Assembly: GCA_965224465.1 (NCBI GenBank)
Contig: OZ245049.1
Coordinates: forward strand, 3,450,001 to 3,482,000
DNA from: Flavobacteriaceae bacterium
Lineage (GTDB): Bacteria > Bacteroidota > Bacteroidia > Flavobacteriales > Flavobacteriaceae
Direction of reading: 5' to 3'
Length of the DNA: 32,000 bases
Shown here: positions 16,294 to 18,775 of the stretch, one piece after another
Layout of the letters: every line of letters starts with the position of its first letter
Numbering within the stretch: the first letter of the stretch is position 1
The notes under the pieces: generated by a model
The model's database searches: none
Told to the model about the DNA's origin: nothing
What the model saw: only the letters and a program-made list of their open reading frames with translations
Position numbers and translations under genes: made by a program

Positions 16294-16301
16294 TAAATTT
16301 G
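16294..16301 (+). promoter_or_regulatory. -7 promoter box TAAATTTG for the three-gene secreted-protein operon
   Basis: Exact TAnnTTTG match, 21 nt upstream of the TTG start at 16323. Confidence 0.45.
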
Positions 16302-16322
16302 TAGACTAACCCCACGTAAGTT

Positions 16323-17264
16323 TTGAGTACTAATTTTTATTTAATACTTTTTTTTCTTTTAATAAACACTTCTCTTTACGCTCAAGTAAAGATAGGGAGA
16401 AATCCTACAATCATACACCCAAATTCAATCTTAGAACTAGATAGCAGTGATAAAGTACTGGTTATAAGTCGTATGACAAATACGCAGATGAATGCCATAC
16501 AACCTCTAAAGGGGAGTTTGGTTTTTAATACAAATTACAATTGTGTTTTTGTATTCGATGGAACATCGTGGATGAGCCTGTGTACTGAGACAGGAGTCAA
16601 TGTAACGACCGCTATTTTTCCGCCAGGGACTAAAAGTATTGGTGATTTTTGGATCAATTATTCACGAAACAATATGGCAAGTATTTGGGATGGTGAGCGT
16701 TGGGTGCCTATTGATAGTAATCCTAGAAGAGGTAAAGGTATTCCAAGTGTATCTACGGTCTCTAATCCTAGAGCAGGGGATGTTTATGTTGATAGTATTA
16801 CGGGACATATATACGCCTACGATGGTGAGAATTGGGCGGCTTCAATAGTTGTTCCTTTGGCCGATAATGGATTGCGGGTAACAGCAGATAAAACAGTTCA
16901 ACTTGGAGGCGTTTTAAAAAAGCCAACGATATTGCAAACAAATGCAAAAAATACACTTGCTATAACGGGTTTAAAGCTAGGTGTTGTTGAAGAAGATGAT
17001 ATTATTACCCTTACGAGAACTACGGGGAAATTAAGAAAAATAAGTCCTTCTAATTTGTTTAGAGAAGAGGTTGCAGTGATTACTGCAATGGATGGGCAAT
17101 TGCGATTTAAGCCACCAGTTCCTATCAGTGATTCGAAAAAAGTAAATGTATTTAGAAATGGTGTTCGAATAGATTTTACGGTTATAAATATGACCACCAT
17201 AGAGATTGAGCCTGAAGCAAAATGTTACCAAGGAGATCAAATACGAATCGTACAATTATATTAA
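16323..17264 (+). CDS. Secreted hypothetical protein P1 (313 aa), fibre/adhesin-like repeats
   Basis: The signal peptide ..NTSLYA|QVK requires the TTG start, because the first in-frame ATG is codon 51. There are three ~20-aa repeats ending DGxxW (residues 79-83, 123-127, 167-171). A QLGG module and a VFRNGV C-terminal module are both shared with P2. Confidence 0.7.
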   Translation: MSTNFYLILFFLLINTSLYAQVKIGRNPTIIHPNSILELDSSDKVLVISRMTNTQMNAIQPLKGSLVFNTNYNCVFVFDGTSWMSLCTETGVNVTTAIFPPGTKSIGDFWINYSRNNMASIWDGERWVPIDSNPRRGKGIPSVSTVSNPRAGDVYVDSITGHIYAYDGENWAASIVVPLADNGLRVTADKTVQLGGVLKKPTILQTNAKNTLAITGLKLGVVEEDDIITLTRTTGKLRKISPSNLFREEVAVITAMDGQLRFKPPVPISDSKKVNVFRNGVRIDFTVINMTTIEIEPEAKCYQGDQIRIVQLY

Positions 17265-17305
17265 TATTCCTCAAATTATAAACCCTAAATCAGTTTCACT
17301 AGATT

Positions 17306-17998
17306 ATGAAAAAAATCACGCATAAAATTAAAGTAGCATTGGTAGCCATAGGAATGATGGCTGTAGGAAATGTTAGTGCACAAACAACGATTACTTCGTC
17401 AGCTAGTACGACAAGGGCCAACGCAGATGGGCCGTCTATTCGTTTGATAGACAATAAAGGGACCATTAAGTATTTACAATCTAATAATGGTATTACAACA
17501 ATCACGTCTACGATAGCTGGTGATAAAACAACAACTACATGGCAATTGGGAGGTGAACTTACCGACAATACATATATTGATGTTAAAGGCAACGCATTTG
17601 CTTTAGATGGGATAAAATTAATCACTTCAGAAATTCCTTCTAAAGATGCGACTAGTTTGTCTAGCCATGGAACAGGAACAGGGTATACAATGTTAGTAAG
17701 AGACGAAGTTACAGGTGAGACTAAAAAATTATTGGTTGCTACTCTTTTAAAAAGCGCTCGTACAGAATATATAATTCTAGCTGGGGATGAAAGTGTAAAT
17801 AAAAAAATATTTACGTTAGATTTTTTAACCAAGTTGGTGAAATTACATGTTTTTAGAAACGGAGTTAAATTACGAGCTACAGTTGATTATAAATTGTCTG
17901 CTAGTGGAATAAATCTTACGTTGACTCCTTCGGCTTCAGGATCGCAAGCATGGCATTTGTACACGGGAGATATTATTGAATATTATTACTCAAAATAA
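17306..17998 (+). CDS. Secreted hypothetical protein P2 (230 aa), paralogous to the C-terminal half of P1
   Basis: ATG start and signal peptide ..GNVSA|QTT. WQLGGELTDNTYIDVKGNAFALDGIKL aligns with P1 VQLGGVLKKPTILQTNAKNTLAITGLKL. LHVFRNGVKLRATVDY..GDIIEYYY aligns with P1 VNVFRNGVRIDFTV..GDQIRIVQLY. Confidence 0.75.
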   Translation: MKKITHKIKVALVAIGMMAVGNVSAQTTITSSASTTRANADGPSIRLIDNKGTIKYLQSNNGITTITSTIAGDKTTTTWQLGGELTDNTYIDVKGNAFALDGIKLITSEIPSKDATSLSSHGTGTGYTMLVRDEVTGETKKLLVATLLKSARTEYIILAGDESVNKKIFTLDFLTKLVKLHVFRNGVKLRATVDYKLSASGINLTLTPSASGSQAWHLYTGDIIEYYYSK

Positions 17999-18010
17999 GA
18001 ACAAGAGATA

Positions 18011-18775
18011 GTGTACCGCAATAATTACATACATAAAAGAGTATTCATAACGTTTCTGACATTGGTCTTTTTCACCTTAAAGATCAATGCCCAAAAAGTA
18101 AATGTTGTTGACCATAAAGGAACCTTAAACATTGTAAATAATAATAATGTTTATACATCGGCTAGCGATCCAAATAACCCAACTCTTATCGCTTTAGAAA
18201 ACGATGTTTGGTTTGATACATTAACTAATAAAACTAAAATTTGGGATGGTCTTGTATGGAAGATTATGTTTTCCAGTACTTTGAGTAGTGGGGCATCGGT
18301 TTATACTGGTTTTTTTATAATCAATGCTCCAGAAGGTTTTACAAACACAAGTTTTAGTAAAGCTATAATAAACATGCCGTTTTCACCATCTCAATTAACA
18401 TTTGTGGCATACCCTAATATTGAAAATTTGAGTACGGATGCAGACAATGAAGAATGGGCAAATACCAGTAGTTTACAAAATACTTTTGGAACCATGCAAG
18501 GTTTTGCTAGAAAGGATGGTACCCAAGCAGTTATTTTTATTGGAGGGAGTGGTAGCTCTTTAAACAATATTTCTAGATTTTCATCAAATACGCATTGTCT
18601 TGGGATACGCTATACAAATAGTAATGGACAGGATAAGGGAAAAATAAGGGCTTCAATAACTACGTTAGATGCCAATGGTTTTACGCTTAATGTAAGCTAT
18701 TCTTTAGGTGTGGGCTCTGATAAAACAGATATAATGAACGAGAGTTTGGTTGTTTTTTATACCGCATATAAGTAA
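18011..18775 (+). CDS. Secreted hypothetical protein P3 (254 aa)
   Basis: The signal peptide ..LKINA|QKV requires the GTG start, because the next in-frame ATG is codon 86. VNVVDHKGTLNIVNNNN resembles P2 IRLIDNKGTIKYLQSNN. There is one DGxxW repeat (NDVWFDTLTNKTKIWDGLVW), as in P1. The C-terminal ~165 aa are unique. It lies 12 nt after P2. Confidence 0.7.
   Translation: MYRNNYIHKRVFITFLTLVFFTLKINAQKVNVVDHKGTLNIVNNNNVYTSASDPNNPTLIALENDVWFDTLTNKTKIWDGLVWKIMFSSTLSSGASVYTGFFIINAPEGFTNTSFSKAIINMPFSPSQLTFVAYPNIENLSTDADNEEWANTSSLQNTFGTMQGFARKDGTQAVIFIGGSGSSLNNISRFSSNTHCLGIRYTNSNGQDKGKIRASITTLDANGFTLNVSYSLGVGSDKTDIMNESLVVFYTAYK

Follow-up and report, generated by a model that had tools for sequence, protein, structure and literature searches.

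What do three adjacent genes for mutually related secreted proteins, set between genes of core metabolism, do for a member of the Flavobacteriaceae? The genes, here called P1, P2 and P3, lie in a 32,000-nucleotide (nt) stretch of DNA from Flavobacteriaceae bacterium (GCA_965224465.1, contig OZ245049.1, positions 3,450,001 to 3,482,000 of the forward strand), which we refer to as the window. An initial annotation, made from the letters of the window, had described their products as mosaic paralogues of no recognisable family. We find that the locus is one version of an uncharacterised Flavobacteriia cluster that comprises P1, P2, one or more variable fibres and, often, a protein with a C-terminal domain (CTD) of type B belonging to the secretion system called type IX (T9SS). 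As to its function, we lean, with some reserve, towards a Sec-exported, probably trimeric fibre or adhesin set with a swappable tip, assembled from modules of the phage-tail-fibre type. The genes and the sequence box before them are these, with protein lengths in amino acids (aa):

16323-17264, + strand: P1 gene, 313 aa, TTG start
17306-17998, + strand: P2 gene, 230 aa, ATG start
18011-18775, + strand: P3 gene, 254 aa, GTG start
16294-16301, + strand: TAAATTTG, a Bacteroidota-type -7 box (TAnnTTTG), 22 nt before the P1 start codon

When the coordinates were re-derived, the closely spaced, same-strand arrangement of the three open reading frames (ORFs) came out as first described, with gaps of 41 nt between P1 and P2 and 12 nt between P2 and P3. 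That they are genuine coding genes is borne out by the homologues found in the database, 164 for P1, 681 for P2 and 5 for P3. A check for disrupted frames found all three intact and full-length relative to these homologues, with every family-invariant residue kept; the TTG start of P1 directly follows an in-frame stop codon. The box reported before P1 is present and is the sole + strand TAnnTTTG within 14701-18481, so placed that it is a plausible single promoter of P1-P2-P3. Since the pattern is not enriched in the window (58 observed against 50 expected), the box fits a promoter without proving one.

The three proteins are built as follows:

P1, residues ~30-90: N-terminal module with hairpin 1; 96-178: hairpins 2-3; 186-313: QLGG segment and C-terminal beta-sandwich
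16878-17261, + strand: the P1 copy of the module common to P1 and P2, with QLGG at residue 193 and VFRNGVR at residue 276
P2, residues 45-62: IRLIDNKGTIKYLQSNNG; 72-230: QLGG and beta-sandwich module
P3, residues 30-38: VNVVDHKGT motif; 61-86: single hairpin; 93-254: all-beta C-terminal 'tip' domain

Each pair of proteins had been said to share a module, and in each case comparison bears this out. Residues 186-313 of P1 align with residues 72-230 of P2 at E 7e-4 in BLASTP, and profile-profile comparison with hhalign gives a probability of 98.3% (E 1.4e-14); the common unit is the QLGG segment followed by a beta-sandwich of ~80 aa with (V/I)(F/Y)RNG and GD.I motifs. The other two similarities are weak between single sequences and significant at the family level, where we used a P3-slot profile made by aligning the N-termini encoded by 50 genes found at the P3 position of other genomes. 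For the N-terminal (I/V)D(N/H)KGT motif of P2 and P3, the pairwise E is 0.033, and the profile matches the P2 family with an hhalign probability of 96.6% (E 5.2e-10). The hairpin repeat, present three times in P1 and once in P3, gives a pairwise E of 0.12 and, for the profile against P1, a probability of 95.9% (E 5e-9). Within P1 the hairpins are mutually related (h2-h3, E 5e-8; h1-h3, E 1.7e-7; h1-h2 weakly, E 5.8e-4), and a six-frame translation of the window confines the mosaic motifs to the P1, P2 and P3 ORFs.

The cluster was surveyed by a P2-profile scan of species-representative genomes, which yielded 165 confirmed places, 80 loci being kept. At every one of these 80 loci a P1-like sequence lies no more than 1 kb upstream of P2, with a median gap of 43 nt, and the P1 and P2 families are conserved at 45-65% identity. 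Homologues of P1 come from Tenacibaculum, Flavobacterium, Lutibacter and Hyunsoonleella, and those of P2, which is better conserved and wider spread than the rest of the set, additionally from Polaribacter, Maribacter, Zobellia, Flagellimonas and Nubsella. Tenacibaculum has the cluster in a constant position behind icd, murQ and a 331-aa gene, and Polaribacter carries it after an outer-membrane barrel gene. Judged by these sequences, the pair P1-P2 is conserved widely among Flavobacteriia, at positions that differ from genus to genus. P2 itself matched nothing in the Pfam, NCBIfam and PDB sequence libraries searched; its family, for which those Pfam and NCBIfam libraries hold no model, could be defined as a new one.

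Variation is found downstream of the pair. At 58 of the 80 loci P2 is followed by sequence that resembles the N-terminal ~100 residues of P3, and the ORFs in this slot elsewhere range from 162 to 1298 aa and fall, past the common N-terminus, into many unrelated clusters. Among them are proteins with Peptidase_S74 (E 2.8e-19), with four YadA_head repeats (E 3.3e-21), and with two F5/8-type-C domains together with CBM_5_12. The P3 of the window thus reads as one allele of a hypervariable slot. Its tip (residues 93-254) occurs in few other proteins, on different shafts, in one case with a P1-type N-terminus.

In many loci the run of genes ends in a T9SS cargo protein. Of the 71 loci for which 5 kb or more of downstream DNA was available, 45 have a same-strand protein of ~385 aa with a type-B CTD (CHU_C, E 6.6e-25; TIGR04131, 47.5 bits against a cut-off of 35) 0.6-4.4 kb after P2. 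The Flavobacterium loci continue with a gene for a member of the PorP/SprF family (270 bits) and one for a PorE/OmpA-like protein; the PorP/SprF gene stands beside the type-B cargo gene in two of them, L035 and L070. The type-B protein has no module in common with P1-P3, the only similarity being at the level of the signal peptide, and tblastn with 47 orthologues found no remnant of it in the window. Where other clusters have the CHU_C protein, seven Polaribacter loci (L002, L003, L017, L034, L036, L062 and L065) encode a secreted one of 665-696 aa, whose C-terminus is helical and which may be an alternative partner; the one that was tested had no NCBIfam match.

The common modules also occur well beyond the cluster. 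A profile of the P1/P2 module found 1351 representative proteins at E <= 1e-3, with 362 of them reaching E <= 1e-10, and most of the proteins have 220-330 aa and carry the module at the C-terminus. In other proteins it is paired with collagen triple-helix repeats, the Peptidase_S74 endosialidase chaperone, a pectate-lyase-like domain or YadA_head repeats, and three giant proteins (P0246, 3949 aa; P0249, 2121 aa; P0251, 2792 aa), in which no trustworthy Pfam domains were seen, contain 11-31 tandem matches to its sub-modules. Maribacter-type loci encode, near the cluster, proteins of 1000-1350 aa that begin with a P1-type N-terminal module and then diverge. These large proteins lie at the following positions in their own loci:

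L004, 2217-5714: large protein with P1-type N-terminus
L007, 1633-5676: large protein with P1-type N-terminus
L031, 2472-5606: large protein with P1-type N-terminus
L014, 12843-16469: large protein with P1-type N-terminus

One large Maribacter-type protein contains dozens of GADGNDG..SAYE.AV..GF.GT.S.WL.SLQG repeats, and three had no Pfam match. Because the P1-type N-terminus heads such divergent proteins, it looks like a second reusable adaptor.

As to export, all three proteins had been given Bacteroidota-type signal peptides cut before Gln, and our analysis agrees: the predicted signal peptides cover residues 1-20 of P1 (cut between A20 and Q21), 1-25 of P2 (A25 and Q26) and 1-27 of P3 (A27 and Q28). 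Q21 is invariant among 36 P1 homologues and A25-Q26 among 33 P2 homologues. Bacteroidota favour Gln right after the signal peptidase I cleavage site, a preference that the Ala-Gln ends of the three signal peptides fit. The reported lack of a T9SS sorting domain and of a lipobox likewise holds. No match to the type-A CTD (PF18962 / TIGR04183) was obtained at E <= 1 in Pfam or NCBIfam, with an ORF elsewhere in the window (70-1665) serving as a positive control by matching Por_Secre_tail at E 7.7e-9; the same libraries gave no match to the type-B CTD (PF13585 CHU_C / TIGR04131), no lipobox Cys stands within or just after any of the three signal peptides, and Pfam detected neither YadA_anchor nor another anchor barrel. 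The control ORF (70-1665, + strand, 531 aa) bears a type-A sorting domain, which shows that the host uses T9SS. We also considered the C-terminal beta-sandwich of P1 and P2 as a new T9SS sorting domain and found this unsupported, since it matched no CTD hidden Markov model and no CTD structure was among the top Foldseek matches of the P1 model. As the sub-module is also found internally and in tandem in the giant proteins, a structural repeat fits better than a terminal signal.

For P1, the description as a protein of no recognisable family has to be given up. A protein 100% identical to it over 313 aa (P0001) lists a newer Pfam entry, PF26696.1 (PTL_trimer), in its precomputed annotation, and PF26696 is annotated on essentially all P1 homologues, an assignment known from that annotation and its name, with no score or extent. 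The domain is probably residues 30-90 of P1, since a protein with only the P1 N-terminal module (P0245) is also annotated PF26696.

The likeness of P1 to tail fibres, which the initial annotation had raised as a reminiscence, is borne out by several weak to local similarities. Residues 48-83 match DUF2793 (PF10983) at 17.1 bits (E 0.005), below the gathering threshold of 27 bits, and PF10983.14 is in the precomputed annotation of five P1 homologues. DUF2793 is a conserved domain of the tail-fibre protein Rcc00171 of the gene transfer agent RcGTA and of many phage fibre proteins (PMC5026251). Residues 41-98 match PHROG families of unknown function (best E 2.7e-7), and tblastn matched a Synechococcus phage tail-fibre gene at E 2e-4. 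The AlphaFold2 model of P1, a single chain from a 36-sequence alignment, has a mean predicted local distance difference test score (pLDDT) of 74.9 and a predicted template-modelling score (pTM) of 0.35, with confident beta-hairpins at 47-175, a moderate stretch at ~221-249 (pLDDT 77-84) and a beta-sandwich at 250-313 (pLDDT >90). Foldseek placed the N-terminal branching region of TSP4 of phage CBA120 first among PDB structures (E 4e-5) and superposed the sandwich on ~70-residue stretches in chains of tail and neck complexes from phages, T7 tail-complex entries among them, with a root-mean-square deviation (rmsd) of 2.2-3.2 A. Among the viral models of BFVD there were 190 matches at E <= 1e-3, mainly tail fibres, tailspikes and collagen-like proteins, the first being a Tenacibaculum phage protein. 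Searches of PDB chain sequences with P1, P2 and P3 profiles gave nothing meaningful. All told, the evidence puts P1-P3 among modular, probably trimeric fibre or adhesin proteins with phage-tail-fibre ancestry, set apart from virion fibres by their Sec export.

How might these proteins work together? P1, P2 and P3 would be transcribed together from the box at 16294, and each product would be exported by Sec and cut before its N-terminal Gln, as the sequences and their conservation suggest. The proteins may then fold as elongated, beta-rich, probably trimeric fibres, because of the tail-fibre-like structure matches, the name PTL_trimer and the occurrence of the module beside collagen, endosialidase-chaperone and YadA-head elements; a homotrimeric class is probable on the indirect basis of the family name and the association with collagen, S74 and YadA elements. 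The common modules, namely the C-terminal QLGG and beta-sandwich of P1 and P2, the IDNKGT motif of P2 and P3 and the hairpins of P1 and P3, would serve for docking or as stalks; P1 and P2 would make up the conserved base or adaptor, and P3 would be an exchangeable tip that binds the ligand. Such a set could mediate adhesion of the envelope to an external ligand, for example a polysaccharide, a particle or another cell, from a surface or envelope location that we infer for P1-P3. In most other genomes the co-encoded T9SS type-B cargo, whose gene is not at the window locus, probably provides the link to the outer membrane. The cassette itself would have arrived in the window by insertion into the spacer between the ATL and mrp genes.

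Several observations weigh against this account. With neither T9SS CTD nor lipobox nor barrel anchor in P1-P3, their arrival and retention at the surface are unexplained, and the type-B partner is missing from the window and from 26 of the 71 loci with enough downstream DNA. The signal-peptide n-region of P1 (MSTNF...) contains no Lys or Arg, where homologues start MKxK, and translation begins at TTG; both may be side effects of the insertion and might lower export. The pTM of the P1 model is 0.35 with poorly predicted linkers, and its Foldseek TM-scores are low (0.1-0.26), so that the likeness to viral fibres is local, at the level of modules and not of the whole chain. P3 fares worse, with a single-chain AlphaFold2 model from five sequences reaching a pLDDT of 55, a poor tip model and no Foldseek match at E <= 1e-3, and a lectin or jelly-roll look of the tip is unproven. 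The AlphaFold2 runs cover P1 and P3 as single chains, and trimerisation and hetero-assembly lie outside these models. Finally, literature searches found no published work or experiment on this cluster; a paper on two tandem genes of F. collinsii, pep25 and lbp26, was set aside, as its abstract gives no link to the cluster (PMC9950754). According to that abstract, mutants in these genes lose high-molecular-weight glycosylated material (PMC9950754).

The favoured fibre or adhesin set can be taken further, and we offer the extension tentatively: in Flavobacteriia, domesticated phage-tail-fibre modules may form an as yet undescribed multi-subunit envelope appendage, outside the cytoplasm, in which exchangeable P3 fibres dock by their N-terminal motif on a P1-P2 base, the T9SS type-B protein acts as tether and the mobility of the cassette allows adhesion specificity to switch rapidly. 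Joint assembly of this kind is what a plainer and rather unlikely alternative denies, namely that P1-P3 are independent secreted lectin- or adhesin-like paralogues whose modules are common through duplication and recombination. Recombination among paralogues would equally give the mosaic of modules, several P3-type genes stand side by side in many loci, and large single-chain proteins bear the same modules in tandem; however, the adjacency of P1 and P2 at all 80 loci, their gaps of ~43 nt and their conservation at 45-65% identity suggest co-function. Quite unlikely, in our judgement, is that the proteins are structural components of the periplasm or of the inner face of the outer membrane, never exposed at the surface. 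Sec signal peptides unaccompanied by CTD, lipobox or barrel are what such proteins would have, and a conserved Cys pair in P1 (C74 and C87) fits periplasmic folding, yet among the domains of P3-slot tips elsewhere are CBM5/12, discoidin and YadA-head, which as a rule face outward, and a gene for T9SS surface cargo co-occurs at 45 of 71 loci.

Two further explanations concern the origin or the state of the window copy. It is very unlikely that what stands here is a non-functional piece of the cluster that was transposed without the T9SS partner and is decaying: the locus does lack a CHU_C gene, two of the three genes have non-ATG starts, the n-region of P1 has no basic residue and a transposon-like repeat lies in the 3' spacer, but intact, full-length frames with all family-invariant residues retained speak against decay, as does the existence of 26 other loci that also have no partner nearby. 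We give least credence of all to the idea that the genes are left over from a prophage or tailocin, or serve as a decoy against phages that stems from receptor-binding proteins. While the tail-fibre-like modules and the mobility of the cassette at the window site point that way, virion fibres are not marked by conserved Sec signal peptides, and PADLOC defence models gave no match. Phage structural, integrase and lysis genes, moreover, were found neither beside the cluster in the window nor recurrently at the 80 loci, where the identified recurrent neighbours are housekeeping genes (icd, murQ, ffh and folD).

If the fibre or adhesin set is the right reading, how does it relate to known systems? 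Fibres with DUF2793, such as Rcc00171 of RcGTA, share with it the P..GD(F/V)(W/Y).(D/N)...(Y/W).(D/N)G..W beta-hairpin repeats, an elongated modular build and variable C-terminal tips. In contrast to these phage and gene-transfer-agent fibres, P1-P3 have cleavable Sec signal peptides, housekeeping neighbours and no virion genes, the cluster keeps its position in cellular genera (Tenacibaculum and Polaribacter), and P1 reaches 17.1 of the 27 bits. The best solved-structure matches of the P1 model are branched tailspike adaptors (the CBA120 TSP4 N-terminus, T4 gp10-like) and tail and neck beta-sandwiches. In phages, small N-terminal beta-domains of that kind dock several fibres together, and we propose the same role for the common modules of P1-P3. 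The P1 match is local, however (TM 0.17-0.19; 70-aa sandwich at 2-3 A rmsd), with no sequence similarity, and the common sandwich is C-terminal in P1 and P2 and not N-terminal.

Among systems of bacterial cells, T9SS type-B cargo with PorP/SprF, of the SprB/SprF type, comes to mind, as orthologous clusters end in a CHU_C / TIGR04131 protein and PorP/SprF and PorE-like genes follow the type-B gene in Flavobacterium loci; unlike such cargo, P1-P3 have a CTD of neither type and no module in common with it, and the window has no type-B gene. Trimeric autotransporters of the YadA family are likewise fibrous, modular and probably trimeric adhesins, and YadA_head repeats occur in one P3-slot protein and in one large protein with the P1/P2 module, but P1-P3 have no C-terminal anchor barrel and would be several subunits in place of a single chain. 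Type V pili of Bacteroidota (FimA/Mfa) are also encoded by multi-gene sets for the stalk, adaptor and tip of a surface fibre. Type V pilins are made as lipoprotein precursors with a lipobox Cys and matured by proteolysis, whereas the signals of P1-P3 are of the signal-peptidase-I type and lack a Cys where they are cut, and Pfam gave no FimA/Mfa match.

Modular fibrous adhesins and the re-use of phage-fibre modules by cells are already familiar. Four features we found described nowhere: the multi-gene layout with common docking-type modules, Sec export, the swappable tip slot and the T9SS type-B partner. Among the major colonisers of algae, particles and fish are marine Flavobacteriia, whose attachment organelles, T9SS adhesins excepted, are to our knowledge poorly known. 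With the variety of its tip slot (chitin-binding, discoidin, YadA-head), the gene set is a plausible determinant of substrate or host specificity, also in fish-pathogenic Tenacibaculum, and, if correctly read, it would clearly exemplify the re-use of phage receptor-binding architecture by cells that export it through Sec. For T9SS biology it raises the question by which route fibre proteins without a CTD reach the surface and how they are attached there; how the window copy works with no type-B partner at its locus is a further puzzle.

How the cassette came to its present place was addressed by comparison with relatives. The flanking genes, described as housekeeping, encode TrmB, an ATL-type DNA_binding_1 protein, Mrp/NBP35 and NifU, and TrmB and Mrp of the window belong to protein clusters of at least 90% identity that include proteins from metagenome-assembled genomes (MAGs) of marine Flavobacteriaceae. 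Three MAG contigs (L081, ERZ23500053 scaffold_59; L082, GCA_002400885.1 NVRM01000034.1; L083, ERZ23500094 scaffold_180) are collinear with window positions 6646-26592 at ~80% nt identity by blastn and serve as a genus-level reference for the region. Comparison of the trmB-ATL / mrp-nifU interval, as the initial annotation had proposed, showed that in all three the ATL gene is directly followed by mrp across a spacer of ~70-180 bp, with no cluster between them. Two features of the window describe the difference, neither assigned to a strand:

16100-19282: insert of ~3.2 kb, comprising the cassette and the non-coding DNA that belongs to it on either side, not in the three relatives
18992-19147: repeat of ~156 bp resembling a miniature inverted-repeat transposable element (MITE), with inverted ends CCAACTACA...TGTAGTTGG, in the 3' non-coding part of the insert

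Blastn collinearity is lost at 16083/16092 and regained at 19289, and aligned homology ends at the ATL stop codon (16099) and restarts at ~19283, ~70 bp before the mrp start. The insert holds 223 bp upstream with the promoter box, the three genes and ~500 bp with the MITE-like element; its GC content (0.33-0.37 for the block) is the same as that of the surrounding DNA, and neither a target-site duplication nor a recombinase gene was seen at its borders. With three relatives at ~80% nt identity having ATL directly beside mrp, the cassette is an insertion at the window site. At the 80 other loci the cluster never stands next to trmB, ATL, mrp or nifU, and it keeps places of its own within Tenacibaculum and within Polaribacter. 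Insertion in the window lineage is the simplest reading, as opposed to loss in the relatives. The idea of an accessory insertion thus stands for this site and falls as a description of a sporadic accessory element, P1-P2 being widely conserved. The best non-self identities in the protein collection are 66% for P1, 58% for P2 and 56% for P3, and the closest relative of P1 has a Tenacibaculum-type context; the cassette may have moved within the genome or have been acquired from elsewhere.

The MITE-like repeat reported at the 3' border is present, with further copies in the window: it is 80-84% identical to 12277-12433, and partial copies lie at 11942-12017 and 1742-1803. The block at 11950-12440, between EamA and LysM genes, is likewise extra relative to the three collinear contigs, so that MITE-like elements have been active in the window lineage. 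A generic scan for sigma-70 promoters and terminators added nothing further. On the - strand, ORFs at 16898-17200, 17031-17255 and 17299-17832 (74-177 aa) overlap P1 and P2 and are unsupported; these antisense ORFs most likely shadow the conserved genes on the + strand.

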